From positions 1 to 29,742 of IMG/VR virus record IMGVR_UViG_3300027791_000090: 29,742 nt of DNA, one strand, 5' to 3'. The position numbers were made by a program, and so were the translations under genes. Below, piece after piece: positions 3,474-28,133 of the stretch. Within the stretch, counting starts at the first letter, position 1. Every line of letters begins with the position of its first letter. This DNA is from a virus (lineage: Duplodnaviria; Caudoviricetes). A model generated the notes under the pieces. That model searched no databases, was not told the origin of the DNA, and saw only the letters and a program-made list of their open reading frames with translations.

Positions 3474-3722
3474 ATGGAATCTAAACCTAAATTTAAAAAT
3501 TTTGAATTACCCCCTAAAATTCTGACGCAATTATATGAACTTACGGGTGGGGCAGAGTCCTATAAGGGCTTTATAATAGCTTACTGCAATGAAGATGGTA
3601 CTCCAGTCGTCTACACAAACTGCGAGTCTCAAATTACAGAGTCTGGGCTTATTAAATCTATAGAAAATTACATAACCGAGTATACCCAAAATAGTTATGA
3701 ATTGAGCCAAGAGTCAGAATAG
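3474..3722 (+). CDS. Hypothetical protein
   Basis: 82-aa ORF filling the gap between the nuclease and the helicase. ATG at 3474. Confidence 0.7.
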   Translation: MESKPKFKNFELPPKILTQLYELTGGAESYKGFIIAYCNEDGTPVVYTNCESQITESGLIKSIENYITEYTQNSYELSQESE

Positions 3723-3725
3723 TGC

Positions 3726-3753
3726 TTGACAAGCCAAGCGCTTTATGTAGTAT
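3726..3753 (+). promoter_or_regulatory. sigma70-like promoter for the helicase operon
   Basis: TTGACA(3726-31)-N16-TAGTAT(3748-53), 9 nt before ATG 3763; intergenic. Confidence 0.7.
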
Positions 3754-3762
3754 GGGCTACAT

Positions 3763-7295: not shown

Positions 7296-7308
7296 TAGTA
7301 TGTACATT
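7281..7308 (+). promoter_or_regulatory. sigma70-like promoter for the polymerase genes
   Basis: TTGACA(7281-86)-N16-TACATT(7303-08), 7 nt before ATG 7316. Confidence 0.6.
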
Positions 7309-7315
7309 GTTACAT

Positions 7316-8005: not shown

Positions 8006-8007
8006 TA

Positions 8008-11198: not shown

Positions 11199-12700
11199 TG
11201 GACTTATCTAAATTTAATTTAACGCCTTCAGCCAAAAAAGCCTTAAAGGACAGTGAGTTTATAGCGGAGACATTCGGCCACTTAAAAGTAATAGACCTCC
11301 ATCTTATAATTTCTATATTAGATTTTAGCCACAACAATATAGACTTTGTGTTTAGTTCTAATGGGATCATTAAAGAGGGAATTAAAAAAAGCATGGAGTA
11401 TGCCGTGTCCAGCTACAAAGAGCCCAGAAGAAAAAAGAAAATATATTCTAAGGAGATACTAGACATTTTAGACAATTCTCTTAAATTGTCAGCTAGGTTA
11501 AAAGATGAATTTATCGGGATAGACCATATACTATTTATCATACTAACTACAAGAGAAGAGCTGTGTGATTTTTTACTTTCCCTTGATATTGATTTAGAGA
11601 AAATCAATAGAGACCTAAAAGATACTATAAAAAATGGGATACCAAAAGATCTAGTAGTATCGAGTCAACCAGCTAAAAATCCGAAGGGCGAGTCTTTATC
11701 TGATATTTCAGATTGGTGTGAAGATTTAAATGACAAAATAGAAGCCAGAGGAGATTTTGAAATTTTCGGCAGGGAGGAAGAAATAGATAGAATCTTTGAA
11801 GTGCTTCTCAAGAAAAATAAGAGTAATGTAATTTTGGTTGGAGAAGCTGGTGTTGGTAAAACTGCAATCGTAGAGGGCATGGCAGAAAAAATACTAAAAA
11901 GACAATGCCCAGATTTACTTTTACATAAAAAAATACTTTCATTAGACTTAACTTCGGTTCTTGCTGGCACAATATACAGAGGACAAATGGAAGAAAAACT
12001 TAAAAAAATTCTAGACCAGCTATCATCATCAGGTAATCATTACATTCTTTTTATTGATGAAATACACAATATAATTGGCGCTGGAGGTGGATCAGATGGT
12101 GGAGGTTTGGACTTTGCAAACATAATGAAGCCAGCTCTATCTAGAGGAGATATGTCCTGCGTAGGAGCTACCACCAAAGAAGAATACGAAAGATTTTTCA
12201 AAAAGGACGCTGCCTTAAATCGCAGGTTCGAAAAAATAGACATAAAAGAACCCACAAAAGAAGAAACTTTTGAATTGATTAAAGTTGCCAAAAAATCCTA
12301 TGAAAAATTTCACCAAGTTGAATACAAAGAGGATGTGCTTTCTAAAATAATAGATCTTTGCGATATTTATTTAACAAATAAAAAATTTCCAGACAAAGCT
12401 TTTGATATTTTAGACGAATCTGGAGCTATAACCAAAAAAATAAACTTCGTTCGTCCGCAAAAAGCTAAAAATATGGAGGACAAGCTAATGAATTCTGAAT
12501 TTCAAGACAGCCCACAACACGCCAAGTTTCAGAAGGCTTACTCCAAAATCATAGAAAAATGGGGAAAAAGTCTCGAAAATAAAGTTTTTCCTGTTGACAT
12601 TGATGTAGTATATGATATATTTGCATATAAGTTAAACACCTCTAAGGAAAACGTTAGAAAAGGAAACAACATTCCGTTATCAGGTAAAATAGGATTTTAA
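11198..12700 (+). CDS. Truncated ClpA/ClpC-like AAA+ ATPase (Clp-N repeats + D1 only)
   Basis: Two Clp-N repeats, GREEEI, KKNKSNVILVGEAGVGKT, LFIDEIH, GATTKEEY, DAALNRRF, KFPDKAFDILDE. No second Walker A. Confidence 0.9.
   Translation: MDLSKFNLTPSAKKALKDSEFIAETFGHLKVIDLHLIISILDFSHNNIDFVFSSNGIIKEGIKKSMEYAVSSYKEPRRKKKIYSKEILDILDNSLKLSARLKDEFIGIDHILFIILTTREELCDFLLSLDIDLEKINRDLKDTIKNGIPKDLVVSSQPAKNPKGESLSDISDWCEDLNDKIEARGDFEIFGREEEIDRIFEVLLKKNKSNVILVGEAGVGKTAIVEGMAEKILKRQCPDLLLHKKILSLDLTSVLAGTIYRGQMEEKLKKILDQLSSSGNHYILFIDEIHNIIGAGGGSDGGGLDFANIMKPALSRGDMSCVGATTKEEYERFFKKDAALNRRFEKIDIKEPTKEETFELIKVAKKSYEKFHQVEYKEDVLSKIIDLCDIYLTNKKFPDKAFDILDESGAITKKINFVRPQKAKNMEDKLMNSEFQDSPQHAKFQKAYSKIIEKWGKSLENKVFPVDIDVVYDIFAYKLNTSKENVRKGNNIPLSGKIGF
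12594..12621 (+). promoter_or_regulatory. sigma70-like promoter with extended -10
   Basis: TTGACA(12594-99)-N16-TATATT(12616-21), preceded by TGn; upstream of ORF 12710. Confidence 0.55.
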
Positions 12701-12709
12701 TAATTAATT

Positions 12710-12919
12710 ATGAGAAAAACAAATCGTATCGTAAAAACAATGAAGCAAAGCGGAGGCCGATTCTTTGGTCTTCGGACAAAAGACGGAGCTAGTTATAATG
12801 CTCAGTTTGTTAATGAGACCCCCAGTTATGTGATTATTCACGACCGAAACGCTGGGGTTAAGCGAAAGTTCGCTAAAACCAGTCTAACTGGACTCAAAAT
12901 GGGTACAGTCAGTATCTAA
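12710..12919 (+). CDS. Small basic protein, possible Sm/Hfq-like or SH3 fold
   Basis: 69 aa, helix followed by a multi-strand beta pattern; followed by an intrinsic terminator. Confidence 0.7.
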   Translation: MRKTNRIVKTMKQSGGRFFGLRTKDGASYNAQFVNETPSYVIIHDRNAGVKRKFAKTSLTGLKMGTVSI

Positions 12920-12925
12920 TCAACT

Positions 12926-12951
12926 AGGGCGGTAGAAATACCGCCTTTTTT
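12926..12951 (+). terminator. Rho-independent terminator
   Basis: GGCGGTA-GAAA-TACCGCC stem-loop followed by TTTTTT. Confidence 0.9.
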
Positions 12952-12963
12952 GTGTAATATAAT
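12952..12963 (+). promoter_or_regulatory. GTGTAA motif + TATAAT, leaderless promoter candidate
   Basis: GTGTAA(12952-57) directly followed by TATAAT(12958-63), 6 nt before ATG 12970, right after the terminator. Confidence 0.6.
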
Positions 12964-12969
12964 CTATCT

Positions 12970-14181
12970 ATGGGCACTAAAGGAAAGGAAATATATCTAG
13001 GTAATTTGTTTACAATTGATATCAAACCAGATCAAAGAGATTCTGAAATTTCAGAATTCGAAGCGGAGCTAATCAGATCGTACCTTAAAGATGTGCTGTC
13101 AGATATAGAAGAGGCCGAAAGCACAATAGAATTAATAAATTCAAATTTTTTCTATGAAAGTTATTCTTTTATAAACGAAAATAAAAAATATCTATTAAAA
13201 ATTAGTTTAGATCCAGACAACGGAAAGCTTTCTACTGAAAAAAAAGCTCTAGATGCTGTAAGTGATTTAATATCGCCCGAAGTCATAAATTATACAAATG
13301 ACGAAGATTCTGGAATTGAATTTCTTCTTTTTAGTTGGGAAAACGGAGATAATTTTGATTTCTTTGGTATAGACGACCTTATGCATAATATCGGCACTTT
13401 TACATGTAATTTGGACTTTATGCATGAATCTAATTCTTCGGAGCTGCTGTCTTTTGAAGATAAATTTACCCAAAACGAATCAATCTTAGAGCTTTTTGAA
13501 GCCTCAGACGAAAAAGAGAAAGTCATTTTTGAAAACTTAGTAGATCTAAACTTGGATGATGCTAAAAACATTTTCTCAACACTTAAAAGCATTTTTCAAG
13601 AAAGGTATTCCGAAGACATAACCGTCTTATGCCATTCTAACCTTAAAAAGAGCAACATCTTATACCAATCAGAATATATAAAGTTTATTAATTTTGAGCA
13701 CTCCCACAGGGCGGACATTTATTATAGCCTACTTAAAGTCATTAATAACCTGTACTTATTTAAATCATCTAAAGATATCAGTTTATTTTTAGAAAGATAT
13801 CACTCATTTTCTAATTTGGTTAAGGACCTTTCTCTCGAAGATTTTTTAAGCAAGTATGAAGAAAAAAAAGAGACAAATCAACTTCTCCTCTTTCAAGATA
13901 TATTTCATAAGGTGCTCTTTCATTTTAATGCTTATGGAGCTTTTTATAAATCGTCGGACTTGATAAGGTATATTGAATTGTATAATAACCTTAGATCGAC
14001 TGTTGAAAAATATTTTCCCGACTATATAAAAAGTTTAGATAAATTGTTTTATACATGTATCCAAACCGTTGAAACTTACGATATAGACAAGTTAAAAACA
14101 ATTGCGGGTGAAGTTGATGAAGAAGAAGTTGACGAAGATTACTCAAACCCAGGAATAGAAGATTACGAAGCTGCAGATTAG
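12970..14181 (+). CDS. APH/choline-kinase-like phosphotransferase fold, likely pseudokinase
   Basis: KYLLKI (beta3 Lys), LSTEKKAL (alphaC Glu), SPEVI, SWENG, LCHSNLKKSNIL, KFINFE; acidic C-terminal tail. Confidence 0.7.
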   Translation: MGTKGKEIYLGNLFTIDIKPDQRDSEISEFEAELIRSYLKDVLSDIEEAESTIELINSNFFYESYSFINENKKYLLKISLDPDNGKLSTEKKALDAVSDLISPEVINYTNDEDSGIEFLLFSWENGDNFDFFGIDDLMHNIGTFTCNLDFMHESNSSELLSFEDKFTQNESILELFEASDEKEKVIFENLVDLNLDDAKNIFSTLKSIFQERYSEDITVLCHSNLKKSNILYQSEYIKFINFEHSHRADIYYSLLKVINNLYLFKSSKDISLFLERYHSFSNLVKDLSLEDFLSKYEEKKETNQLLLFQDIFHKVLFHFNAYGAFYKSSDLIRYIELYNNLRSTVEKYFPDYIKSLDKLFYTCIQTVETYDIDKLKTIAGEVDEEEVDEDYSNPGIEDYEAAD

Positions 14182-14200
14182 GTTATATAAAATAATAGAA

Positions 14201-14223
14201 TATTACATTTATTACATTATAAT
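14201..14223 (+). promoter_or_regulatory. Tandem 9-mer repeat abutting a -10 box
   Basis: TATTACATT x2 (14201-14218), then TATAAT (14218-23), 5 nt before ATG 14229. Confidence 0.5.
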
Positions 14224-14228
14224 CCTGC

Positions 14229-14696
14229 ATGAGTCACAAGCAACACGATATTTATAAGCCAAATTCTTTTAATTCTGGGTGTGCATTTTCTTTTAAAATT
14301 GTCGAGAAAGATAAGGAAGGAAATAATCAAAAACCTTCATTTTTAGTACAGTCAATTAAACAGGCTAGCTGGAATAGTCAAAAGAAAACAGGATCTTTCA
14401 GCGCAAACGCCAAAGACCCAGAGAAAAATATTTATTTTAAGTTGGGAGAAAATGAAATTGGCGGCATGCTCAATGCAATTGAAAATTATGCAGAGTTCTC
14501 AGCTTATCATAGCTATAATGAAGATAAAACTCAAATATCTTTCAAGCCCTACACGAAGAAGAACGGGCAAAAAGCCTTTTCTTTCAGTGTGGTAAAAAAC
14601 TCTACTCTAAAATTTGGAATGGGAGTTGAGCTGTCAGAAGCTAGAACGCTTAAAGGCTTGTTTGATCTTTTCCTATTTAAGTATTTTGATTATTAA
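14229..14696 (+). CDS. Putative Whirly-like single-stranded nucleic-acid-binding protein
   Basis: Two beta-sheet/helix repeats with collinear motif similarity to plant Whirly proteins (see findings). Confidence 0.6.
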   Translation: MSHKQHDIYKPNSFNSGCAFSFKIVEKDKEGNNQKPSFLVQSIKQASWNSQKKTGSFSANAKDPEKNIYFKLGENEIGGMLNAIENYAEFSAYHSYNEDKTQISFKPYTKKNGQKAFSFSVVKNSTLKFGMGVELSEARTLKGLFDLFLFKYFDY

Positions 14697-16387
14697 TGAA
14701 AAAAGTTCTTTTTCACTCTAATTCAGCTAAAGCATTCACGGGTTTCGGAAAAAATGCGAAAAATATTCTTCGCTATCTTCACAAAACTGGCAAATACGAG
14801 GTTATTGAATTTGCAAATGGTATGCAGTGGGGCAACCCATCTCTTTCATTAAGGCCTTGGAAGGCTCAAGGCTCGCTTCCAAATAACCCAGCCGTTATAC
14901 AACAAATAAATTCCGATCAAAACAAGTCTAGATTAGCTGCATATGGATCATTCACTATCGATCAGGCTATAAAAGAATATAAGCCAGACATATATATAGG
15001 ATGTGAAGATATTTGGGCTTTCTCAAATTATTGGGAAAAACCTTGGTGGGATAAAATCAATAATATGATTTGGACTACCTTGGACAGTCAACCAATACTC
15101 AGTCAAGCACTAGAAGCGGCACCAAAAACTAAAAATTTTTACGTCTGGGCCTCTTTCGCAGAAAAAGACATGAAAGAACTTGGTCATGATCATGTGGGCA
15201 CTTTACATGGAACAGTAAACACAGAAGATTTTTATAAAATTAGCGATCTCGATAAACAGAAGACGAGAAGCAAATTTAATCTTTCTGACGAATTCATTGT
15301 TGGCTTTGTATTTAGAAACCAACTGAGAAAAAGCGTGCCTAATTTACTTGAGGGTTTTAAAACATTTAAAAAAGAATGCCCCGAAGCTAAACTATTATTA
15401 CATACGCATTGGAGCGAAGGCTGGGATATACCAAGGCTTTTAAAAGAAAAAGGTATAAACAATGATGACATTTTAACTACTTATTTTTGCTCTTCTTGTA
15501 AAAAATACGCAATAGCCCCTTTTTGTGGTCAAGAGAAAACTTGCCCATTTTGTGGATCTGAAAAAACTTTCAATACTACAAATACTAAAAATGGAGTTGA
15601 CGAGTCACAGCTAAATGAAATTTATAATATTATGGATGTTTACTGCCATCCATTTACGAGCGGGGGAATGGAGATACCCATCTTCGAAGCAAAAATGACC
15701 GAACTTGTAACGTTGGTCACAAACTATTCTTGCGGAGAAGACTCTTCTAGTCTTGAATGCGGCAGCTTTCCGCTTGATTGGTCAGAATACAGAGAGCCAG
15801 GGACTCAATTTATCAAAGCCTCAACTTATCCATCTAGCATAGCCAAACAACTTAAAAAGGTTTGGAAAATGCACAAAAACAAACGTAATGAGATGGGTAA
15901 AAAAGGCCGAGAATGGACGATCAAAAACTATTCAACGGAAGCTGTTGGCAAAAAACTCGAAAAGATTTTAGACGCGATGCCAGACATAGACTATGATTTT
16001 TTAGAAATCAATAAGGTAGACGAAAACGCAATACAATTGCAAGATTTACTTGACGAAGGCAAAAGAATCGCTGTCGTTATGCCTGAATCTGCTGGAGATG
16101 TTTTATGGATTAATAGTTTAATGACAAATCTCAAAAAACTTTACACTGATCATGATATTTATGTTTTCACTAACCCTCAATTCTTCGATTATATAGAAGA
16201 CCATCCAGCGGTCCACAAAGTTCTACCATATTCTCAACAAATCGACAACTTACATTTTCTAGAAGGTAAAAAAGGGCATGAGGGATTTTTTGATATAGCG
16301 TTCTTGCCACATTACGGGACTCAGCGCTTCCACAATTATCATCATAATGGAATAGACAAAACACAATTTGAGTTATATGAAAATTAA
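14696..16387 (+). CDS. GT4-like glycosyltransferase with Zn-ribbon insert and C-terminal GT9 N-lobe
   Basis: TGFGKNA, FRNQLRKS, LNEIYNIMDVYCHP.TSGGMEIPIFEA, GKKGREW; CSSC...CPFC; C-terminal IAVVMPESAGDVLW...HPAVHKVL. Confidence 0.85.
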   Translation: MKKVLFHSNSAKAFTGFGKNAKNILRYLHKTGKYEVIEFANGMQWGNPSLSLRPWKAQGSLPNNPAVIQQINSDQNKSRLAAYGSFTIDQAIKEYKPDIYIGCEDIWAFSNYWEKPWWDKINNMIWTTLDSQPILSQALEAAPKTKNFYVWASFAEKDMKELGHDHVGTLHGTVNTEDFYKISDLDKQKTRSKFNLSDEFIVGFVFRNQLRKSVPNLLEGFKTFKKECPEAKLLLHTHWSEGWDIPRLLKEKGINNDDILTTYFCSSCKKYAIAPFCGQEKTCPFCGSEKTFNTTNTKNGVDESQLNEIYNIMDVYCHPFTSGGMEIPIFEAKMTELVTLVTNYSCGEDSSSLECGSFPLDWSEYREPGTQFIKASTYPSSIAKQLKKVWKMHKNKRNEMGKKGREWTIKNYSTEAVGKKLEKILDAMPDIDYDFLEINKVDENAIQLQDLLDEGKRIAVVMPESAGDVLWINSLMTNLKKLYTDHDIYVFTNPQFFDYIEDHPAVHKVLPYSQQIDNLHFLEGKKGHEGFFDIAFLPHYGTQRFHNYHHNGIDKTQFELYEN

Positions 16388-16775
16388 CATTCCAATATCA
16401 GTGGGGGAACTTGTTGATAAAATTACAATTCTTGAAATTAAATCGATAATGATTAGCGACAAGGCTAAACTAGTTGAAGTTGAAAATGAAAAAATTCAAC
16501 TCACGAAAGAGTTTCAAAAAATTTCTAGCGCTAAACTTTCTAAATCACAACTCTTCGCTCTAAAAGCAGATCTTTATGAAACCAATTTAAGACTTTGGCA
16601 CATTGAAGATAATATCAGAAAGTGTGAACGAAATAAAAATTTTGACGCAGAATTTGTTAGATTAGCCAGGGGCGTTTATCAAGCAAACGATATGCGATTT
16701 AGTATTAAAAATAATATCAATAAATTAACCAATTCAGACATAAAAGAAGTAAAATCATATGAGTCATATAGTTGA
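16377..16775 (+). CDS. DUF6165-like protein
   Basis: IPISVGELVDKITILEIK...NLRLWHIEDNIR.CE...FVRLARGVY..ND.R..IK..IN...S.IKEVKSY, a pattern typical of glycosylation loci. Confidence 0.8.
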   Translation: MKINIPISVGELVDKITILEIKSIMISDKAKLVEVENEKIQLTKEFQKISSAKLSKSQLFALKADLYETNLRLWHIEDNIRKCERNKNFDAEFVRLARGVYQANDMRFSIKNNINKLTNSDIKEVKSYESYS

Positions 16776-17892
16776 AGTATACGCAAAAGATTTGGGTGTT
16801 AAAATTGGAGATCCTGTGGTGACAGATCATTTTTTTCCAGGATTGCCCGATAAATACATAACTATTCAAGCATCGAACAAAATGCCAGCGGCAAATTATT
16901 TGTATTGGGATTTGGTGATTGGCTTGATAAAACCTTATCTTGGCGATATAAAAATAGTGCAAGTAGGAGGCTCAGATGACAAGCTAGTAAACGGAATAGA
17001 TTTAACTACCCTAGGTAATTCTTACAAACAAATGAATTACGTTATTAAAAATTCTAAAGCTCATTGTGGTTGCGACAGTCTTCCTTCACATGTTGCCAGC
17101 GTTTATGATATACCTTCAATCTCTTTGCACTTTAATCTTTATAAAGAAAACTCAAAGCCTATCTGGCACAAAAATAATCATTGCATAAGCATTGAGCCAG
17201 ATTTCTCGAAAACAAAACCGTCTTTTTCTAGCAATTGCAATAGAATAAATGAGATTAAGCCAGAACAAATTGCTCAAGCAATCATTAATCAATTGAACAT
17301 TAAAGAAAAAATAAAATTTAAAACCATAAGAGTTGGTTCTTCTTATAACCAAGATCTCGTAGAAATCGTTCCCAACTTTTTTTCTCCGCATCAAGATTTA
17401 ATAAATAAAAATATAAACATCAAATCAGACATCCATTTTGATAAGCAGAATATTGTAAATTGGTGCAGGCATTCAAATGTAAATCTCTTTTTGAGTCGGA
17501 CTATAGATGATGAGACGATTGATGCTTGCACAAACTTAAAACAAGTAGTCTTTAATTATAGCGCCGAACATAAAGACTTAGATCTTACAAATTTTATTAA
17601 AAAATTAAAAAACAACAGAATAAACTTAGTTATCCAGGCCCAAGACGAAAAAATGTTTTCTGATGTTAGTTTTGAATATTTTGACGACAATGTTATTAGA
17701 AAAAACAATGCGGAGCCAACGAATATTCCGAATATAGAATGTAAATTCTTATCTAAAAAGAGATTTATTTCAGAGGGAAATGTATTTAATTCAGAATTTT
17801 CCCATAAAACGCTTGACAATTCTAATAAATTTGTCTATGATGAAGCCTCAAAATTAGAAATAGAAAGTTTATACCTATATGTCGAAGAATAA
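16759..17892 (+). CDS. GT9 (heptosyltransferase-like) C-lobe fused to an unknown domain
   Basis: HIVEVYA, YITIQAS, NYLYW, IVQVGG, CGCDSLPSHVASVYDIPSISL (~ DSGPxHLAxAxxxPxxxL), INEIKPEQI. Confidence 0.75.
   Translation: MSHIVEVYAKDLGVKIGDPVVTDHFFPGLPDKYITIQASNKMPAANYLYWDLVIGLIKPYLGDIKIVQVGGSDDKLVNGIDLTTLGNSYKQMNYVIKNSKAHCGCDSLPSHVASVYDIPSISLHFNLYKENSKPIWHKNNHCISIEPDFSKTKPSFSSNCNRINEIKPEQIAQAIINQLNIKEKIKFKTIRVGSSYNQDLVEIVPNFFSPHQDLINKNINIKSDIHFDKQNIVNWCRHSNVNLFLSRTIDDETIDACTNLKQVVFNYSAEHKDLDLTNFIKKLKNNRINLVIQAQDEKMFSDVSFEYFDDNVIRKNNAEPTNIPNIECKFLSKKRFISEGNVFNSEFSHKTLDNSNKFVYDEASKLEIESLYLYVEE
17813..17841 (+). promoter_or_regulatory. sigma70-like promoter
   Basis: TTGACA(17813-18)-N17-TATGAT(17836-41), upstream of ATG 17879. 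Confidence 0.65.
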
Positions 17893-18619
17893 ATTATATG
17901 GCCCAGATTTGTGGAAACGCAACGAACATGGACTCTTAGAGTCTGTTGAATACGAATTTAATCAAGATGGCTCAGTCAACTGGCGAGCCATGATCAGCCC
18001 AGAGAACTTGTATCCAAATAAGGATCACTTCGAAATGCGCAAGATGCCAGTTCCAAATTCCATTGAAGGCTTGGAAGATAATCAACTACTAATCAAGCTT
18101 GGCGGAATCAAAGAGTTAGCAAAGCTCCGTGGCTTTCATAACTTAACATACGACATTTACGAGTCCTCAGATAATCGCGTAGTAACCCAGTGTATGATCA
18201 ATTGGATTGGCAACTACGAAAGCAATGGCTCGCAAACATTTAGTTCAATAGCTAACGCCACTGTTCACAATACAAATGGATTTGCCGCTAAGTTTCTAGA
18301 ATGTATTGCAGAGAATCGCGCATTCGTTCGCGCTGTTCGCAACTTTCTCGGTATTCATATCGTCGGAGCTGACGAGATTGACTCTTCAAAGAATAAGTCT
18401 CCCATTGTAGCCCCTCCTTCACCCGCTGGAGCGAAGGATATTAGCCCACAGGGCATTTTAAAAGAGAAAGCAGGTACAGACTTCAATTCTTTTGTAACTA
18501 AGCTACGCAAGCTTTACGTGGACGGTAAATACGAGAACGATCCAGAAGTTATCAAGACCTGGAAAGATTACAAAGATGTTCCCGCCAAGGAGTGCCGTAA
18601 GCTTTTGAAGCTTCTATGA
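17879..18619 (+). CDS. Possible Rad52/Sak-like ssDNA-annealing protein
   Basis: IKLGGIKELA helix, three strands, then IAENRAFVRAVRNFLGI..VGADEI, like the AxTxAxxRAxxxxGI motif; Pro-rich linker and small C-terminal domain. Confidence 0.5.
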   Translation: MSKNKLYGPDLWKRNEHGLLESVEYEFNQDGSVNWRAMISPENLYPNKDHFEMRKMPVPNSIEGLEDNQLLIKLGGIKELAKLRGFHNLTYDIYESSDNRVVTQCMINWIGNYESNGSQTFSSIANATVHNTNGFAAKFLECIAENRAFVRAVRNFLGIHIVGADEIDSSKNKSPIVAPPSPAGAKDISPQGILKEKAGTDFNSFVTKLRKLYVDGKYENDPEVIKTWKDYKDVPAKECRKLLKLL

Positions 18620-19062
18620 TTTTTGAAGTAAAAACAGATTCTGAATTACTAGAGCTAAGGGATGTTCTACAGAATTTTTACGAAATATTACCATATGAAA
18701 AAGATTTAAATGGTTTTAAAAAAAATTGGATTCTATCTTGGAAAGAATTAATTAGATCTAAAAAAGGTAAGATATTTGCTTTAGAGGATGAACGAAAAAT
18801 TACAGGGGCTCTGGGCTTTTTAATAAGCCCAGCCCTTGAAGATGGAGTTCTTTGCTGCACTGAAGCCTTTTGGTATGTAGACGAAAAACACAGGGGCGCT
18901 GGATTAAAACTTCTTAACAAATTTGAGTCTTACGCAAAATCCATAGGATGCAAAAGAATAGGTATGGTTCATTTAGAGAATTCAATGCCAGATAAATTAA
19001 AGAAACTATATACTCGAAAAAAATACAAACATATCGAAAGCATGTATTTAAAAGAATTATAA
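18616..19062 (+). CDS. GNAT-family acetyltransferase
   Basis: WYVDEKHRGAGLKLL acetyl-CoA motif, YAKSIGCKRI, KLYTRKKY. Confidence 0.88.
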   Translation: MIFEVKTDSELLELRDVLQNFYEILPYEKDLNGFKKNWILSWKELIRSKKGKIFALEDERKITGALGFLISPALEDGVLCCTEAFWYVDEKHRGAGLKLLNKFESYAKSIGCKRIGMVHLENSMPDKLKKLYTRKKYKHIESMYLKEL

Positions 19063-19953
19063 TTCTCCTATTAAATAACCAGTTCTTATATCATCAGAGT
19101 CTAGCAAGCCAGCAATATCAAATTCTGCGAACTCACTGTTCGCGGGTACAGTAATTTTATTGTCACTTACGGGGAAAGTATCGCTACTAGACTTAATGCT
19201 AATACCGCTTCCAGAAATTGTTACTTCCTCTTGCGTACTTAGTTTAAACATACCGTAGAAATTTACTGGCACTGTATTATCAATTATAATATTAGTTCCT
19301 GTAAATATCTCTACCGTCTGTCCTCTGCCGACAACTATGTCATTTCCATTTGACCTGGTTATTATAAACTCATCTGTATTTATTTTGGTGAAATTTTCAA
19401 AACCACTAAACATTGTTCCACTTGCGGAGGGGGATTGTTCCCCAAACGTTAAATAATCATTAGGTATAACTTTATAAAATATATTTTCCTCTACCCGACC
19501 ATCTATTTCAGTGTCTTTGACATTTATTAGAAACGATGGTTCTCCAGAAACTAAACTAAGAGGAAATTCAGATACCCTATTTGTAAAAAGCACCCTGTCC
19601 GCTTCAAAATTTGACTCATCTCCAGTATAAACATCTACTTTTTTTATATTTTGGATAGCTAGTCCAGTCGCTCCGTTCAAATCTCCAGAAAAAAAAGCTT
19701 TTAAATTTACATTAGCTTCCAAAATCTCTATGGCATCCATAAGTTGCTCGTCTGGCTCTGTTCCAAGAGGCGCAGATAAAAGATTTTTTCCTTGGAATTC
19801 TAATCCAGTAATCGCAAATTCAGGGAACTCTACCTTTAGCCTGCCAGAACCTCTAGTAAAATCATTGGAGTCTTCAGGCCCTCTCACAAGACACTCTACT
19901 ATATAACCAGACGAAGCTGGATGATTACCTATAACTGTTTCATTAAATACCAT
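19057..19953 (-). CDS. Hypothetical tail-associated protein
   Basis: 298-aa acidic, beta-rich ORF directly downstream of gpJ on the same strand. Confidence 0.65.
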   Translation of the reverse strand: MVFNETVIGNHPASSGYIVECLVRGPEDSNDFTRGSGRLKVEFPEFAITGLEFQGKNLLSAPLGTEPDEQLMDAIEILEANVNLKAFFSGDLNGATGLAIQNIKKVDVYTGDESNFEADRVLFTNRVSEFPLSLVSGEPSFLINVKDTEIDGRVEENIFYKVIPNDYLTFGEQSPSASGTMFSGFENFTKINTDEFIITRSNGNDIVVGRGQTVEIFTGTNIIIDNTVPVNFYGMFKLSTQEEVTISGSGISIKSSSDTFPVSDNKITVPANSEFAEFDIAGLLDSDDIRTGYLIGEL

Positions 19954-19972: not shown

Positions 19973-22900
19973 TTATGTCGTTATGTTTCCTGTCACCCCT
20001 ATTTGCAAAAAGTTAAAATTAGAGAGTTTGTTTCTATTTATTATGGATTGAGATCTTTCTACAGAGCCGACGATACTACCGCTAGCTGTATTATCGGTAG
20101 AAATGTCTTCAAAATATTTTTCATCCGACACTTCTAATAAAAATTTAGTTCTCTCCTTGTTTTTTTTATTATTTTTAAAAGTATTTGGGCTGTTGAAGTG
20201 AGTGCTTTGAGTTTCTTGTCCAGTTGTTAATCCAATATATTTCATTATATGACCGCTTGTTAAAGAATTTCCAGGCAATTCGGAATTACCTAATATTTTA
20301 AATCCTGTTTGAGCGTCGAAGGGTTCTAAAAGGAAATTTGAAAATGTTGGGGCGGAAGTACCAGGATAACTTTCTTTCTCGATATCTGAAAATACTGGAG
20401 CGCTAGTTGTGACTGATGCTGACGTTTCTCCACCAGTCCAGTTAGAAAGAGTCCATGGTAAATTTTCATTTTCCCCTCCAGACCATGCAATTCTATCGTG
20501 AGAAAGAACTGTATCAAAAGTTGGAGCGCTACTATCCGTTATTGCTCCGTTCGTTATTGTATCCCCTGCGCTCCAAGAGGCCACATTAAATGGATATTGA
20601 CGACCTTGATCGGCAGAGGTCCAAGCAATTCTGTCATGGGAAAGTTTCAATGAGAACACTGGGGAAGAACTATCTGTTATCGTGAGGTCTATTATCGAAG
20701 CGCCACCTGACCAAGTAGCAACATTTCCTGGAAAGTTTACATTTGCTCCACCTGACCAAGCAATTCCATTATAAGATGGACTAGCTGGATCATCATCGGT
20801 TAAGACCCAAGTTGCTCCACTAGTTCTAATTCTTAGTCCAGAGGTTATCGTATTTACAAATAAATCTGCACCCCCAGTATATGTTCCATTGAAGTCCGCT
20901 GGATTGTCCGTCATCCCGCTTCCTACTGCACCCAGAGTAAATCCAGTAAAATAAGTATTAGTTGAATCTTCATCAGTAAGAATCCAATTCACTCCAACTT
21001 TTTTAACTTTTAATCCAGGCACTTGTGTATTCACAAACAAATTATTGTCCCCAGTATATGACCCATCGAAGTCATTTGGATTATTTACCATACCACTGCC
21101 AATTCCATTTACATTAAATCCAGTAATATAACCATTGGCTGGGTCATCGTCAGTAAATACCCAAGTATTATTAGCCCCAGTTTGTTTAAGCCTCAATCCA
21201 GATGTTGCTGTGTTTTGATACAAATCAACGCCTCCAGTATATGTTCCATCGAAGCTATTTGAGTTCTGCGACATTCCAAATCCAATGTTAGCTACAGTAA
21301 ATCCACTATAAACTTCCAATCCAGTCCAAGACGATACATTAGCAGGATGATTTATATTTTCGCCTCCTGACCAAGCTATTGGAGTATTTACATAATTAGT
21401 AGCAGGATCTTCATCTACCAAAATCCAAGTATTATTAGAGCCGCTTGTTTTTATTCTCAATCCGCTATATCTAACATTTTGATAAAAGTCATCAGCTCCA
21501 GTATAGTTTTCATTAAAATTGCCTAGATTTTGTGGCATACCTTGTCCAACGCTATCTACAGTAAATCCAGTAGTTCGTTCTATTATTTGAGTATCTGTTA
21601 TCGCCAATGTACCATCAACATATCCCTTTAAAGATGTGTCTCTAGTGACTTCAACATATAATGCATGTAAATTTCCATCATTTAAAGAAGCTCCCGCAGC
21701 ACCAGTAATAGCTAAATATTCTACTCCATTTAAATTAACATAATTTTTTCCGTCTCCAGATTGAAACCAAGCTATTCCAGTTCCATTGTTATGAGACTCT
21801 AGTAAGTATTGCTTTCCGTCAAGACTTGAGTCAAATTTAGCCCAAGCGAACATTGTAAAATCTTTAGTTCCCACAGTTAAATCAGTTCCAGTTAATAAAA
21901 TATGATTGTTCGCGCCATCGGTTTGACTAGCCCTTATTCCAGTATCAAGTCCGCTTGTAAGCATGTGTTGATAAAGTTTATTTTGATTACCTGTTTCGTG
22001 TACTGCGAAAAACTTGTCCTCTAAATTAGCATCTTCTCCAGATCTTTGGCATAAAACCAAATATTGATCGTGATTAAATCGGCTATCCGTAACCGAAGAT
22101 TCAGAGTTGTTGAATTCATTTAAAATTGGAGTACCAAAAGAATAATCTTCAACGCTATCGGATGCATAATTTAATACCGATATCGGCAAATCACTCGTTG
22201 CCGCATTATTAAACGCTAATTCTTCTGCGGCTATGTAAGCATATTTGCCCGTGCCACTTGCTAATTGATTATTATCCTGAAAAGCTGCAAAATAAAATCC
22301 AGTATTAGACACTCCAGTTATACAAGTTTCGGAGGTATCTCTATCTTTAGCAGTATCCGCCTCCTGCAATTGAATAACAACGGTAGGGATCGTTCCAAAC
22401 GTTCGGTTAAACTCAACAGCCTGGTATCCCGTGCCCACTGTAACCCCAGACCTACTTACAAAATCAATCTCTATTTTTTTACCGTCGACAGTAAAACTTC
22501 CAGTTTGAGAAGCCATATACGTATAATGAGTTTCATTGGGGTTTTCATCAAGCGATTTTACAAAAAATTTCGTCCCATCATTTTTAGTATATTGTCTACC
22601 CAGTGGTCTATAGATGTCGTTAAAAGACCCACTTACTTTTTGTTGGATAAATACAGCTGGAGGTTCGTTAAATTCGCCTTCAAAAAATATATCTTCCCGA
22701 CTGTTGTCGCCTATTGATATTTGAAAACTGTTGACTTCGAAATTGAGCCCTGAAGGTACCCTGTATCTTTCATCACCAGTGTACCCAAACATTTCATTGA
22801 CTTCTGCATTTAATATTGAAAATGAACTATCGTTCGTCAAAGTTTTAAAATTTCCCGATTTTTCATTTCCTTGAAAATCTAATATGTTTATTTCTTGTTG

Positions 22901-25900
22901 CAATACATTTCGCTGTACAGAAAACCCAGAATTTCCAAATATATCTTCAAATTCTAAATCCACAATTGTATTTATAGAGGGATCGTTTTGGATAAAAGAA
23001 TTTTGAGCAACTCCAGTTTCAGCGGCATTGTCGAATGTAGAATTAAAATTTGTTTTAATAGAAATGTTTGAGTATTCAGTAAAAGCCTCCTGATCGCTGA
23101 ATGCAAAAGTATTTATATCGGTAGTAAATTCAACAGTTTTCGATGATAATGATCTAGCGACTGCAGGTGTCGTGTTTTCTGAAAACACGGTTAAAAAGTA
23201 TCTTCCTATCTGATCTATTTTAGAATCTCCACTTAATGTAATTGACGTAGAGGAAGTATTGCTTTTAAAATGCTCGCTAACAATAGTTGTTGAATCAGGC
23301 TCTTCTAAAATAACTATATATTTTTCTGGTACTTTCTCAACGATTGTTGGGTCATTTACTGTAAAATTTATATTTTTAGATCTACCTACGCCATCAGAAA
23401 ATGCTCCCACCACAACGCTATCTGGTTCACTAGGTCTAATAACTGAAGTTAATAGAAGATTTGGCTGAAATGCGCCGCCATCTAAATCAAAAGATGTATT
23501 TTCTTCTACAAATTTAAACTTACCCGTATGATGTATTGTCGCTGATACATTAAATCCTAGATTTTTATCTTCTGATATATTCAAGACTCTATAATACTTT
23601 GGGTCTCTTCCGCTTGAATCAATATTATAAATCGATCCATGCTTTATATTTGCATCTTTTTCTGAGAACCACTGACGGGCCACGCTCTCGCTTCCATTTA
23701 CAAGAGTATCTAGTCCGTTTACAAATACAGCGACACCGCTATCTATAATCTCATAACTAGAACCCAAACCGCCAGGTTTTATTTTTAAAGACATTACTTG
23801 AGGATTATGTATTTCTTTATACAACTCATTATTCGAAGTAGGGTTGCGATAAAAATCTTCAATTCCAGACTTGCCCACTGGATTATATATATGTATATTT
23901 CCACCAGTTACATATTCAGTTAAATCACTACCTATTGCTGGCTCAACTATTATAGCCGATGGCCCCTTTCCATTTGCTGCAGTTCCAGCAACAGCAGCAC
24001 TGTATGCTTCGTCTGGATCGTAATAATCAGTTACTCCACTAGCCCCTAAAACTGTTCCGTAGTTTCGAGTGAAATTTCTCATTTCATCCTCAACCCTTAT
24101 GATATCCCCTGGCTGCACTAAAAGAGCCTCCAATCCAGCATTGAAGGATATTGTTTCCGTAGTGTGTAGCGATTCAAACAAAATATATTTTGCCAATCTA
24201 TGAGCTTGAGCTTTTGAGGTGACTCCGATTCCTTCTACTTGTTTAAAATTTAAACCTACGTGCTTTATAGATTCAGGATCTTCTACATATTCTGTCTGTG
24301 ACGTAAAATTATTTCTTTTATCCAAAAAAGAAACTTCCACGGCAGATAGCTTTGTCGATCTATCTACATCCGCATACGAAAACATTCCATCTTTAACATT
24401 TAAATTATTAAAAATCAAATGAGGGGGAAATTTATGTTCTTTTGGCGCTGTTGAAGTCGTATGTAGGTTATTAAAGTCTTCAAAAAAATACGGTCTGTCT
24501 ACCCTAACAGACACGCAAGAATTATTAAAATATGTCATCGCCCTAAATGATCTAGCTAGGTTTTGTATAGCGTCAAAAGCATCAGTTTGATCTTTCATCA
24601 ATATGTTGCAACTAAATCTAGGCTCAAGACCTCCAAATCCATCATCTAATCCAATAAATCTGCCAGCACCTCCCATATTATTAGTAGTCTTGCTCCCATC
24701 ATTCATTGTAACAGCGTCACAATACATACCTATTTCATACAGAGTCCATTTATCTATGATATCTACATCTTGCAGATAAGATCCTAAACCATACCTTTTG
24801 TTTGTTAAAAGATCATAATATATCCAAGCTGGATTATCCGACCATTCATATTTAAAAGTTCCATCCCAGTTGCCATTATAGATTAAATTCCCCCTTGTCG
24901 TCGTTGTGTCAGACGCTCCATTCCAAAATCTAAGATCAGTCCCGTCAGCTTGTATCGGACTATAATTACTAGGTATCTTTATTTTTTTGCCTTTGACTCT
25001 GAATGTCCTAGATGGAATTTGTGGATGATACTGAGAATCTATTTGACTAGCTACATAACAACTTCCAGGATAGTAAAAGGTATCTAGATATTTTTCTGTT
25101 ACTGTTGCAACGCCCCCATTTCTGTTAACTAGATTAGAAACTGTTTCGTGTTCTACCTTGCCTATTTCTATAAAATTATATAAATCGGTGTCAGATAATT
25201 GAGGCAAAGTAATATCTTCTAAAGTTACTGTGTATGGCGCTGTAATAATTCCCCTGACCGATAGCTTTCCATTTCCATTTCCAACTGTTTTGCCCTTTCC
25301 TGGCCTAACTGTAAAAACCGCCGCCTCCTCTGTTATGGTGCCATCTTTATCTGACTTTCCGACCTTAGCCGTAAAGGTTATTGTTAATGGCATGGGCGTT
25401 CCCATTTTACTTTTGCCCGCTTCATTTTCACTTTTGGTAGAATATGATCTTGTGTCACTTAGCCCGTCTATTTGTAAGCCTATATCTACCTTATCTATAT
25501 CTTTATCATAATTTGTATATGTAAATGGTTTAGCGGCGCTTTCTATTGGATGATATTTTTGCCAAGTAACGAAGTCTCTCGCTGAAGTGCCTTCAGTTCT
25601 TACATCCCTACTTCCTTTACCTGTTCTTGCGCCATTTAGAGAAACATTAACTGTATACGTCTCAGTCTTCGTTTCATATCCCCTGTACCATTTCCATGTC
25701 CTCACCGTCCTCGTCCGCGTTTCATATTGAGCAGACATATTATACGGCCCTTTAATTGGAGAAGATAACTTCTTTAACCTAGTTGGGTGTTTTGTTATAA
25801 CGGAAGCTGTCTGTAAAATTTTTCCGCTTTTAAATTCAATGTCGTACTTGGAATGAGTCGAATTTCCCGCGGAGTCTCTTAGTGCCGTTTCATTAAAGTA

Positions 25901-26173
25901 AATTCCTTGGTCAATGGGTAATGTAGTACCTCCAATAACATTTTGTTCTTTATTGAAGGTTTTCTGAACCCTTGAACCGCCAGTTAAAATTTTTCCTTCT
26001 TGGCTAACTAGACCTGCGACCTCACCTTCACATATCAAATCTACCGCCTCGTATATCTGATAACCCTGCTTGGCAGCAGTCGCGTCTGGCGGCATCAAGT
26101 AAGAAGGCGAAGCTCCCTTACTCCTACCAGCTATAACTATCTTTTTCTTAAATATGCTTTTGTAAAAACCCAT
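19973..26173 (-). CDS. Tail tip / host-specificity protein, lambda gpJ-like, with lectin-like C-terminus
   Basis: DLICEGEVAGL, YYPGS, VKGKKIKIPSNY, WDGTFK..WSDNPAWIYYDLLTN.RYGLG, IDKWTLYEIGMYCD, EPRFSCN, GVTSKAQAHRLAKY, QPGDIIRV; then FN3-like, lectin-like and LamG domains. Confidence 0.92.
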   Translation of the reverse strand: MGFYKSIFKKKIVIAGRSKGASPSYLMPPDATAAKQGYQIYEAVDLICEGEVAGLVSQEGKILTGGSRVQKTFNKEQNVIGGTTLPIDQGIYFNETALRDSAGNSTHSKYDIEFKSGKILQTASVITKHPTRLKKLSSPIKGPYNMSAQYETRTRTVRTWKWYRGYETKTETYTVNVSLNGARTGKGSRDVRTEGTSARDFVTWQKYHPIESAAKPFTYTNYDKDIDKVDIGLQIDGLSDTRSYSTKSENEAGKSKMGTPMPLTITFTAKVGKSDKDGTITEEAAVFTVRPGKGKTVGNGNGKLSVRGIITAPYTVTLEDITLPQLSDTDLYNFIEIGKVEHETVSNLVNRNGGVATVTEKYLDTFYYPGSCYVASQIDSQYHPQIPSRTFRVKGKKIKIPSNYSPIQADGTDLRFWNGASDTTTTRGNLIYNGNWDGTFKYEWSDNPAWIYYDLLTNKRYGLGSYLQDVDIIDKWTLYEIGMYCDAVTMNDGSKTTNNMGGAGRFIGLDDGFGGLEPRFSCNILMKDQTDAFDAIQNLARSFRAMTYFNNSCVSVRVDRPYFFEDFNNLHTTSTAPKEHKFPPHLIFNNLNVKDGMFSYADVDRSTKLSAVEVSFLDKRNNFTSQTEYVEDPESIKHVGLNFKQVEGIGVTSKAQAHRLAKYILFESLHTTETISFNAGLEALLVQPGDIIRVEDEMRNFTRNYGTVLGASGVTDYYDPDEAYSAAVAGTAANGKGPSAIIVEPAIGSDLTEYVTGGNIHIYNPVGKSGIEDFYRNPTSNNELYKEIHNPQVMSLKIKPGGLGSSYEIIDSGVAVFVNGLDTLVNGSESVARQWFSEKDANIKHGSIYNIDSSGRDPKYYRVLNISEDKNLGFNVSATIHHTGKFKFVEENTSFDLDGGAFQPNLLLTSVIRPSEPDSVVVGAFSDGVGRSKNINFTVNDPTIVEKVPEKYIVILEEPDSTTIVSEHFKSNTSSTSITLSGDSKIDQIGRYFLTVFSENTTPAVARSLSSKTVEFTTDINTFAFSDQEAFTEYSNISIKTNFNSTFDNAAETGVAQNSFIQNDPSINTIVDLEFEDIFGNSGFSVQRNVLQQEINILDFQGNEKSGNFKTLTNDSSFSILNAEVNEMFGYTGDERYRVPSGLNFEVNSFQISIGDNSREDIFFEGEFNEPPAVFIQQKVSGSFNDIYRPLGRQYTKNDGTKFFVKSLDENPNETHYTYMASQTGSFTVDGKKIEIDFVSRSGVTVGTGYQAVEFNRTFGTIPTVVIQLQEADTAKDRDTSETCITGVSNTGFYFAAFQDNNQLASGTGKYAYIAAEELAFNNAATSDLPISVLNYASDSVEDYSFGTPILNEFNNSESSVTDSRFNHDQYLVLCQRSGEDANLEDKFFAVHETGNQNKLYQHMLTSGLDTGIRASQTDGANNHILLTGTDLTVGTKDFTMFAWAKFDSSLDGKQYLLESHNNGTGIAWFQSGDGKNYVNLNGVEYLAITGAAGASLNDGNLHALYVEVTRDTSLKGYVDGTLAITDTQIIERTTGFTVDSVGQGMPQNLGNFNENYTGADDFYQNVRYSGLRIKTSGSNNTWILVDEDPATNYVNTPIAWSGGENINHPANVSSWTGLEVYSGFTVANIGFGMSQNSNSFDGTYTGGVDLYQNTATSGLRLKQTGANNTWVFTDDDPANGYITGFNVNGIGSGMVNNPNDFDGSYTGDNNLFVNTQVPGLKVKKVGVNWILTDEDSTNTYFTGFTLGAVGSGMTDNPADFNGTYTGGADLFVNTITSGLRIRTSGATWVLTDDDPASPSYNGIAWSGGANVNFPGNVATWSGGASIIDLTITDSSSPVFSLKLSHDRIAWTSADQGRQYPFNVASWSAGDTITNGAITDSSAPTFDTVLSHDRIAWSGGENENLPWTLSNWTGGETSASVTTSAPVFSDIEKESYPGTSAPTFSNFLLEPFDAQTGFKILGNSELPGNSLTSGHIMKYIGLTTGQETQSTHFNSPNTFKNNKKNKERTKFLLEVSDEKYFEDISTDNTASGSIVGSVERSQSIINRNKLSNFNFLQIGVTGNITT
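20340..21571 (-). repeat. Four diverged copies of a roughly 100-aa domain, nested within gpJ
   Basis: Four A segments ([TS]GF..G.GM..F...YTG...N...GL....W..D[DE]D), four B segments (IAW...P....W.G) and four C segments (S[AS]P.F), in non-tandem order. Confidence 0.85.
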
Positions 26174-26769
26174 TATCCTAAATCTTCACTAGTGACATTG
26201 GTTGAAATGATATTAGATCCGACACGAAGTTCTCCATACAATAATGGTATGGGAAAACCCTGAACAGCATTATTTTCTAAATTGGTAAAAATGTAGCTAG
26301 ACATATCAATCTTGCTTTCTGCCGTCTGAGGCTTTGGAGTCTCAATAGGAAATAATAAAGACATAATGCCTTGAATCAGCATTCCAACCGCCAAATTAGC
26401 CAAAAACCCACCACTAGCTAAAGCCGTGCCTAGCGCACTTAAAGCCCCAGCTACGAATCCACCTATACCCGTGACAACCGCCGCTATCGCAGTAAAAACA
26501 AACGCGCCAGTTATGGTTGGGACAATATGTATTTCTTTAGGAGCGTTCGCTGAAGATAATTCATCAATCGTCTCCCATTTTTTATCTGGGTTTTGGGGGT
26601 CTATAAAAGCATAACTCAAGCCTTCCTTGAATTTAGAAAGCAAAAAATTCCTAACTCCTGGATTATTAGCCTCTAAAGCGCTAGTAATCTCCAAAAGCTT
26701 CTTTACTTTAAATTTATGAGTCGTCCCATAAATTTCTCCAAATTCTCCGTGTATAATTACATTAGTCAT
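26173..26769 (-). CDS. Tail assembly protein, lambda gpI-like
   Basis: IHGEFGEIYG, ALEANNPG, IHIVPTITGA, Gly/Ala hydrophobic stretch, SYIF..LEN..VQGFPIPLLYGELRVGS. Confidence 0.9.
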   Translation of the reverse strand: MTNVIIHGEFGEIYGTTHKFKVKKLLEITSALEANNPGVRNFLLSKFKEGLSYAFIDPQNPDKKWETIDELSSANAPKEIHIVPTITGAFVFTAIAAVVTGIGGFVAGALSALGTALASGGFLANLAVGMLIQGIMSLLFPIETPKPQTAESKIDMSSYIFTNLENNAVQGFPIPLLYGELRVGSNIISTNVTSEDLG

Positions 26770-27154
26770 CCAAAAATTCCTTTAACATTATTACACCTTT
26801 TTCCGATCTTTGGAAATTAGGCATATCAAATAAATTAAACCTCTCTGTAGATAAAGAGTATATTAAAAATGGATAGAGGCAGTTTTTTGAATTCTCTATG
26901 TCATATTCGGACGGATCTTCCCTACCATTTACGTGAGTGTGAAATATAGCCAACAAATCTCCTTTTAATTTTACCTGCAAAAAATCCGCTGGGTTAATTA
27001 AAAATATATCATCATCACTCGAATGATTTTTGGCGGGCTTGAAAATCAACCCTCCATCTTTATAACAAATAAAGCCGCAAACTTCTTTTTTTAAGTCCGT
27101 ATTAGCGTATTCAATTAAATCTTTTTTAAAACTATCCTTTAGGTGGGTATGCAT
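26762..27154 (-). CDS. gpK-like JAB/MPN metalloprotease domain
   Basis: KEVCGFI, AKN, FHTHV...PSEYD (JAMM motif); lies between L and I. ATG 27154 preferred to TTG 27175. Confidence 0.85.
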   Translation of the reverse strand: MHTHLKDSFKKDLIEYANTDLKKEVCGFICYKDGGLIFKPAKNHSSDDDIFLINPADFLQVKLKGDLLAIFHTHVNGREDPSEYDIENSKNCLYPFLIYSLSTERFNLFDMPNFQRSEKGVIMLKEFLDD

Positions 27155-28133
27155 GAGTTCCTGGAAATCCTCCAAATCTTAGTCCATTTTTTCCAAATCT
27201 TAGTTTGCAGGCAGACAATTTTTTTGAACATTCATCTCTTTGCCAATTTTTAGATATTGGCGGGAAATTTTCATTTCCAGATATAGTGCCCTCTCCGACA
27301 CACACATAAAAAGTACGCAATGGCTTTATCGAAGCATTGTTTATTGAGCTTTCTGAATCGTCGTCAGAAACGTCATGATTGGCTATTTCTGTGTATACAT
27401 GCTGTCCTTTAGTATAACTCGTTGAACCGCTCCATCTGCCTTTAAATTGTGCAGAAGAGGTCGATACTACAGTTCCGCTAGAGTCTCTAAAATCATCATC
27501 GTTTGCCGCCTTTATAGGTTCTTGACTGTAAAGACATCCATGCCCCCTATATATCCATGTGCAGTATTTTGAATATACATTCCTGTTCGGAAGGTAACTA
27601 TTGTCTAATTCAAAAACAGTGGATAGTTCCAGTTCCACCAGATCTTTTGTTTCTGTAGTCCTCCTGTTTATATAAAAGGTTTGATCTGGCAAGTACGAAC
27701 TTGCAGAAGCTTCACTGCTCTGAGTGTTTATATCGAAATACGGGTTTTTTCCTCCTTCAAAATTAACATCATCTAAAAACCTAGCGAAAGTTCTTTTTCT
27801 TACTACCTTTGCTCCGATTAAGTTGTTATGTACTTTTAGATATTTTGATATTGTATATTGTATATTCGATACTTTTAATCTTGGTCTAGGGAGGCTATTG
27901 TCGCCCTTCACCTCAAAACCGCTAGTCTCCATTGGGTAAGATATATATTCTTGACCTTGCCATACAATTCTTTCCGCAAGAGCTCCTTTTCTAGTAGTCA
28001 TCGTGGGAGACAAAGCCAATACGCTATTTTGATCTACTGGCCAGCCATAATAGATCAAATAAAATTCTAGCATTTGACTTGGCTCGAGAGACATAGCCTC
28101 AGATGCTACTTTTTGATCTATTCCTTCTGCCAT
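27132..28133 (-). CDS. Minor tail protein, lambda gpL-like (Fe-S)
   Basis: WQGQEY..YP....GFE....LPRPRLKVSN, GAKVVRKRTFARFLD..NF, CTWIYRGHGC, CSKKLSACKLRF, FGGFPG. Confidence 0.93.
   Translation of the reverse strand: MAEGIDQKVASEAMSLEPSQMLEFYLIYYGWPVDQNSVLALSPTMTTRKGALAERIVWQGQEYISYPMETSGFEVKGDNSLPRPRLKVSNIQYTISKYLKVHNNLIGAKVVRKRTFARFLDDVNFEGGKNPYFDINTQSSEASASSYLPDQTFYINRRTTETKDLVELELSTVFELDNSYLPNRNVYSKYCTWIYRGHGCLYSQEPIKAANDDDFRDSSGTVVSTSSAQFKGRWSGSTSYTKGQHVYTEIANHDVSDDDSESSINNASIKPLRTFYVCVGEGTISGNENFPPISKNWQRDECSKKLSACKLRFGKNGLRFGGFPGTHAYPPKG

Follow-up and report, generated by a model that had tools for sequence, protein, structure and literature searches.

Tail-tip genes and domains of the gpJ-like protein

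The window, meaning the whole stretch of 29,742 nt analysed here, comes from an uncultured marine phage (IMG/VR record IMGVR_UViG_3300027791_000090) and carries on its minus strand a gene for a gpJ-like central tail tip protein (P0001). The tail-tip genes and the lectin-like domain scored in this protein are located as follows:

26173..28133, minus strand: lambda-type tail-tip genes upstream of gpJ (PF05100, PF14464; PHROG 18, 30, 32)
27132-28133, minus strand: gpL-like gene
26762-27175, minus strand: JAB/gpK-like gene
26173-26769, minus strand: gpI-like gene
19973..26173, minus strand: gpJ-like central tail tip protein, 2066 aa, single open frame
22292..22420, minus strand: H-type lectin-like domain, aa 1252-1294 (PF09458, E 1.2e-05, 25.8 bits against a cut-off of 24)

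The gpJ-like gene is thus preceded by gpL-, JAB(gpK)- and gpI-like genes, as in a lambda-type tail tip; the labels gpK and gpI for genes before gpJ are the lambda names. The hub domain of a lambda gpJ-like protein was likewise found, with matches to PHROG 31 (central tail fiber J, E 5e-108, aa 357-924) and to PF13550 (E 7e-14). This hub occupies the N-terminal half of the protein, and the nest of repeats described below lies in the last third of the open reading frame. Regarding a lambda-type C-terminus with shaft, prism and Ig-like receptor-binding domain, the PHROG 31 match ends at aa 924 of 2066, and aa 1400-1991 had no match among 50,697 annotated phage records. About 90 aa upstream of the scored H-lectin domain, the pattern F-x-x-x-P-x-V-x-I-Q-x-Q was recognised by eye (approximately 21980-22880, minus strand, aa 1100-1400), which suggests a second, putative lectin-like domain at this position.

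Directly after gpJ lies a gene for a 298-aa product (19057-19953, minus strand) without Pfam or PHROG match. Its product is fused to the gpJ C-terminus in the relative P0036 (E 6e-25), and the long gpJ of L024 appears, by eye, to run on as the P0036 fusion does. The plus strand carries a phage-like cluster at 580-19062, including genes for GDP-mannose dehydratase, RecA, DnaB, primase, PD-(D/E)XK nuclease, PHP, exonuclease, DNA polymerase III alpha, ClpA-like ATPase, glycosyltransferases and GNAT acetyltransferase.

Four copies of one module inside a LamG-like host domain

Self-comparison of the C-terminal region was carried out with ungapped scores over aa 1501-1990 (490 aa), using 100 shuffles of the same residues as a control. 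The A segments scored 101-189 against one another and the B or BC segments 83-125, the best score among the shuffles being 61 and their mean 39. The C segments alone scored 30-33, inside the shuffle range, and are therefore recognised only by their position and by relatives. Four copies of a module of about 100 aa were recovered in the protein order A1 B1 A2 A3 A4 B4C4 B3C3 B2C2 C1, which reproduces the order and positions proposed in a first-pass annotation of this DNA. The segments and the two parts of the domain that flanks them are listed here in protein order:

21584..21943, minus strand: N-terminal part of a LamG/ConA-like host domain, aa 1411-1530
21392..21571, minus strand: A1, first half of copy 1 (from self-comparison)
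21320..21379, minus strand: B1, after which copy 2 is inserted (B/C site)
21128..21307, minus strand: A2, first half of copy 2
20951..21124, minus strand: A3, first half of copy 3
20651..20947, minus strand: copy 4, the sole contiguous module (A4 20947-20780; B4 20773-20702, or from 20764 by the first-pass positions; C4 20677-20651)
20513..20644, minus strand: B3 C3, second half of copy 3 (C3 starts at 20539)
20387..20506, minus strand: B2 C2, second half of copy 2 (C2 starts at 20410)
20324..20362, minus strand: C1, last strand of copy 1
19988..20323, minus strand: C-terminal part of the LamG-like host domain and protein end

Copy 4 is indeed the only contiguous copy, as had been claimed, and the identical LSHDRIAW said to restart both resumed B segments was found at 20644 and 20506. 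Copy 4 was also supposed to sit in a DDDP-type loop of copy 3; the insertion at this loop holds, whereas the loop itself reads DEDS.

In every module copy the reading frame is open and certain W, D, G and P positions do not vary. The A copies share only 57-65% identity in DNA, so that the nest is not a collapsed assembly repeat or an assembly loop. This divergence, the open frame and the recurrence of the same architecture at depths 2-5 in many records, such as 8 of the 8 members of the P0003 cluster, make it hardly credible that the pattern is an assembly artefact, a reading suggested by the metagenomic source and by the fact that, among the contig pieces listed from other studies, none runs through the entire region. 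Among marine metagenomes, 20 of the 24 listed runs contained the nest stretch or part of it, and contig pieces from four other studies, most of them at an identity of at least 99%, covered 27 to 30 of the 30 bins into which the stretch was divided. Record L040 is identical to the source stretch at 6309 of 6309 nt and may come from the same sample. In this contig-piece survey, one contig of run X6 contained three joints with short sides.

Relative L021, in which the host domain is uninterrupted, aligned to both flanks of the nest, through its residues 1-115 on the N-terminal side (E 6e-30) and 113-236 on the C-terminal side (E 3e-14), which implies that about 410 aa were inserted at one point. 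At the level of sequence alignment, the whole nest was thus shown to be a clean insertion in a LamG/ConA-like domain. The identity of this host domain was obtained through relatives: PF13385 (Laminin_G_3) scored 28.1 bits in L020 and 28.7 in P0027 (cut-off 27.6), and 23.8, below the cut-off, in L021, with no Pfam match for L022 and P0033 and none to this family for the source gpJ itself. ESM Atlas matches of the single-copy relative P0018 were LamG clusters. Three points are absent from the first-pass annotation: the nest's own insertion in a LamG-like domain, the additional sites used in relatives, and the apparent swapping of layers from one lineage to another that is discussed below.

Nesting depth and ancestry of the layers among relatives

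Relatives were gathered from two protein searches (17 and 16 matches), one profile search, cluster members and locus scans. The profile search covered 1.84 billion representatives and gave 11 matches, 7 of which belonged to the same module family. On inspection, the other 4 (P0037-P0040) turned out to be unrelated repeat proteins, and the single match in prokaryotic genomes (L060) was a chance motif; these candidates were discarded.

A census of nesting depth was made on 46 distinct complete host-domain interiors, with depth taken from motif strings and checked by eye; the parse of the C motif was noisy. Depth 0 was found in 2 interiors, depth 1 in 10, depth 2 in 11, depth 3 in 11, depth 4 in 1 (the source protein) and depth 5 in 4, and 4 further interiors held two copies plus an insert of about 120 aa inside B1, the 3 others being unbalanced. 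Two more uninterrupted relatives, L020 and L021, were missed by the census anchor. The records are close kin, several of them from overlapping data sets, so these counts are descriptive and not independent. Nesting depth had been expected to vary from 0 to 4 among homologues, and the variation found extends from 0 to 5. The existence of relatives at depth 0 indicates that the module is dispensable. Balanced strings were seen in 31 of the 34 multi-copy interiors and a plain head-to-tail ABC-ABC arrangement in none of them (0/34), in agreement with the proposal that this is not ordinary tandem duplication, the nests placed after the first strand (L052, L034, L024, P0036) coming near to plain tandem. 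At least three insertion sites were clear: after the first strand (L052, L024, P0036), in the A/B loop, and between B and C. In the single-copy relatives, A, B and C were present together in 10 of 10.

Closely related proteins of neighbouring depth show A and BC gained or lost as a pair. P0023, at depth 2, and the tail of P0049, at depth 3, agree in 322 of 330 residues and are set apart by two gaps, one of 62 aa that corresponds to an A and one of 47 aa that corresponds to a BC; by eye, P0003 and P0004 exceed the source protein by an A and a BC placed at mirror positions. Among the unbalanced forms, P0008 and P0054 have one A fewer than P0049-P0052, which belong to their cluster, and L034/L053 have a perfect 60-nt extra repeat absent from L052; such forms may be half-way states or assembly slips.

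Several other forms were recorded. An extra single copy of the module is present near the start of the LamG-like domain in L017 (4494-4811), L018 (5656-5970), P0005-P0008 and P0011. In P0049, the middle nested A agrees with this upstream copy at 48 of 57 residues and with the inner A at 50 of 57. It also clusters with upstream copies in a rough tree, which was built from 49 A cores and only 38 columns, is unsettled and serves as a hint only, the pattern having missed some divergent copies. The insert of about 120 aa that splits B1 was seen in L007 (6673-7023), P0016, P0017 and P0029 and contains, by eye, W-x-x-x-D-x-D and YPW-like motifs. As a candidate copy of the module (P0016/P0017) it reached only 0.6% in hhalign, stayed as 1 of 22 rows in the module alignment, and was left out of the copy count. 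In L044 an in-frame stop (2899-2901), either a sequencing error or a real break, falls in the first A copy, while L008, whose protein sequence matches around it, is open. Finally, a single contiguous copy lies inside an unrelated long beta-roll fibre protein (L054 3001-3381; L056 3001-3375; P0035 aa 1152-1269), identified by PF21300 matches in P0035 and L054, from which it follows that the module moves between tail proteins.

Co-inheritance of the halves was assessed in 16 proteins with a terminal run of k A followed by k B segments (k at least 2), of which 12 were kept after 4 near-duplicates had been dropped. For these 12 proteins (382 pairs), the Spearman correlation of A-A distances with those of the partner B segments was 0.618 when the halves were paired in nested order and 0.495 when they were paired in parallel; among 2000 random pairings, none came up to the nested figure and 3 came up to the parallel one. 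Nested pairing was the best permutation in 10 of the 12 proteins, including the source (best of 6) and P0003 (best of 24). The exceptions were P0004 (24 permutations) and P0010 (2 permutations), where it took second place. These values also bear on whether the halves complement each other in parallel order or swap between the three chains of a gpJ trimer. Lambda gpJ is a trimer, according to the available portion of PMC11101478, all A copies are homologous to one another, as are all BC copies, and the parallel pairing itself lay above 1997 of 2000 shuffles. We nevertheless consider such an arrangement quite improbable, given that nested pairing scored higher, that A4 is joined directly to B4, that a confident model was obtained from one chain (see below) and that the other insertion sites, after strand 1 and between B and C, fit intrachain insertion.

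The ancestry of the individual layers was examined by matching each of 12 source segments against 8 relatives at the DNA level. Both flanks and the C-terminus were closest to L026 (90, 90 and 89%), with L049 tying on the right flank. The outer shell was closest to L045 (A1, 94%; B1, 89%; A2, 89%; B2C2, 81%; C1, 86% over aa 1931-1947), and the core to L043 (A3, 85%; A4, 91%; B4C4, 81%; B3C3, 78%). The concentric left-right assignment of partners ranked 1 of 120 with 15 relatives and 2 of 120 with the 10 closest relatives, the swap in the latter case lying inside the L045-like shell. Flanks, shell and core are each nearest to a different relative on both sides, and the nest is hence a three-layer concentric mosaic. 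This ancestry pattern suggests that layers may have been exchanged by double crossover. Recursive self-insertion had originally been put forward as the way in which the nest was built; it stands as a building step, but not as the only one within a single lineage, since layers look exchanged between lineages.

Predicted structure, proposed mechanism and known nested proteins

The stretch A3-A4-B4C4-B3C3 (209 aa), which occurs naturally as a two-deep nest, was modelled confidently by AlphaFold2 from an alignment of 26 rows, with a pLDDT of 87.6 and a pTM of 0.73, the five models ranging from 86.0 to 87.6 and no residue falling under 50. In this model, split copy 3 repeats the pattern of strands and short helices seen in intact copy 4 (model residues 61-164). 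By comparison, the model of the 592-aa host domain plus four-deep nest was poor (pLDDT 45.7, pTM 0.26), and its fold search was uninformative; it shows a strand at C1, E544-551, with a local pLDDT of 62. The structural check that had been proposed therefore came out favourably for the inner two-deep stretch and poorly for the full region. Co-folding of A3 and B3C3 as separate chains gave a score of 0.02, which is no answer and was counted neither way.

In fold alignments of the two-deep model, single-domain chains of 114-137 aa (bradavidin, 4xin, 8ah9) aligned 76-85 residues over positions 1-209 or 2-209, and shwanavidin aligned to residues 61-161, others to 61-162. These ranges, read from weak matches (Z at most 4.3), fit an arrangement in which model residues 1-60 and 165-209 would form one compact unit. 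The split halves are thus predicted to fold together at the inner two levels, copies 3 and 4. None of 48,161 chains reached a Z of at least 5 with this model in VIA-align (best Z 4.3), and Foldseek against viral models and the PDB gave no match at E ≤0.001. At the sequence level, no Pfam family was found for 13 module units at E up to 10 and no PDB sequence below E 0.26 for the module; PHROGs gave one weak module match (E 0.023), and an ESM Atlas search of the module gave a best value of 0.89 and no match. The lack of a family or fold match does not prove a new fold.

Taken together, the balanced depth variants, the co-inheritance of mirror halves and the confident two-deep model support the earlier proposal of nested pairing and recursive self-insertion. 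They also bear on the alternative in which A and BC are independent small domains, each multiplied by tandem duplication (A-A-A, BC-BC-BC), and no domain is split. In favour of this alternative, two adjacent tandem duplications would formally leave the string of a nested duplicate, and unbalanced interiors such as P0008 and P0054 do occur; the predominance of balanced forms, the common ancestry of mirror halves, the joint presence of A, B and C in all single-copy relatives, and a two-deep model in which both halves are ordered with the pattern of the intact copy render it very improbable. A two-step tandem duplication is a possible route to a new layer, not a description of the final fold.

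We consider it likely that the protein contains a LamG-like domain with four self-nested modules, the outer copies being split-folded, and that layers are exchanged to vary a probable host-binding arm. The parts of this explanation differ in strength. Very probably, as the model predicts, the module is a beta-rich domain with adjoining ends, a whole copy of which fits into the loop of another, so that A3 would fold with B3C3 around copy 4; clean insertion in a host loop requires module ends that are close together, and for this reason the module would also be insertable in a loop of its own copy. In nested copies the inner stack would then be flanked by homologous sequence, A halves to its left and BC halves to its right, such that one crossover on each side would swap the whole inner stack, a step that we regard, jointly with this arrangement, as having good probability. 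A double crossover in register between two phage genomes would yield a concentric mosaic; one out of register would add or remove one layer while the brackets stay balanced, and a single crossover would leave a half-copy. For the first origin of a new layer, one step or two half-duplications would both be compatible with the data.

On balance, the stack would project from the tail tip and alter the reach, valency or specificity of surface binding. Because the four-deep model is poor, the out-and-back stalk of stacked domains proposed at first pass and any receptor role are only inferred, the latter from the position in the protein, the lectin-like neighbours, the lambda precedent and the module in the beta-roll fibre (P0035, L054, L056). 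More tentatively, and with somewhat less than even confidence, the module may be a new mobile adhesion module for which self-nesting serves as a diversification system. The nested homology on either side would allow whole layers of a receptor-binding arm to be exchanged, added or dropped in one balanced recombination step, and the outcome would be a telescopic tail tip whose length could be tuned and whose specificity would be mixed. Alternatively, the nest could fold as described and yet be a tolerated by-product of recombination, acting as a spacer or without effect on host binding. Depths 0 to 5 all occur, depths 2 and 3 are found in nearly identical proteins, half-copy forms are recorded and no ligand-binding fold was matched, all of which suit a by-product; nonetheless, the open frame and the invariant W, D, G and P residues have been kept in copies that have diverged in DNA, and the module also occurs singly in a second host loop and in the unrelated beta-roll fibre, its hosts in the present sample always being adsorption-type proteins. 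We therefore judge a by-product unlikely, while giving it more weight than the other alternatives. The family also suggests that tail tips may vary by a route other than C-terminal swapping or tandem expansion, and it provides a small insertable domain without matched fold.

With respect to known systems, the C-terminal domain of lambda gpJ binds the receptor, and, as far as the available text of PMC11101478 describes it, lambda gpJ shares with the source protein the hub domain, the L-K-I-J gene order and a variable C-terminal part. This part consists of a helical shaft, beta prism and Ig-like receptor-binding domain in lambda gpJ, whereas it contains the H-lectin and LamG-like domains with the nest in the source gpJ. 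In phage tail sheath proteins, additional domains are formed from the outgoing and returning chain and have been proposed to aid adhesion; like the gpJ nest, they represent an out-and-back chain in a phage tail protein, but they are mostly Ig-like and belong to a contractile sheath, and the portion of PMC9230969 available describes no self-nesting of one module. A literature search on self-nested modules in phage tail fibres, with most subscription journals and supplements outside its scope, found no description of such modules.

Closer parallels in architecture come from two other proteins. In DysF of dysferlin and myoferlin, a domain has been duplicated into its own copy, the inner one remaining intact and the outer one being split, as in the gpJ nest; unlike the latter, DysF is eukaryotic and, in the accessible part of PMC3898210, two-deep. 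Si3 of the cyanobacterial RNA polymerase beta' subunit consists of recursively nested sandwich-barrel hybrid motifs, according to the available portions of PMC10895346 and PMC13114784. On this partial account, Si3 and the gpJ nest both contain homologous non-tandem domains, with outer copies assembled from distant parts of the chain and the stack placed in a loop of a host domain; the Si3 stack forms an elongated arm, to which the inferred shape of the gpJ arm may be likened. The gpJ nest differs from Si3 in protein and setting, in having depths from 0 to 5 among close relatives, in its several insertion sites and in the separate ancestry of its layers. No match between the module and the sandwich-barrel hybrid motif was found in Pfam (13 units, E up to 10), among PDB sequences or in the list of 50 fold matches, where the best Z was 4.3, and none to DysF in Pfam, PDB sequences, Foldseek or the listed fold matches. 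The gpJ nest shows the intact inner and split outer homologous copies that characterise both systems and thus works like Si3 and DysF nesting, membership in either family not being implied.

Recursive self-nesting, a rare way of building proteins of which Si3 is the best-known case, is therefore already known; what is new is the module, for which no family was matched, together with a range of depths, 0 to 5, still present among relatives and the layer-wise mosaic. The Si3 nest is old, and its building steps are no longer visible there. The gpJ module family keeps the empty site, single inserts, nests 2 to 5 deep, half-copies and mosaics, which makes the origin of nesting directly testable. 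Should the tentative reading of self-nesting as a diversification system be true, these phages would provide the first series of snapshots of the way in which deep recursive nests of the Si3 kind come about.
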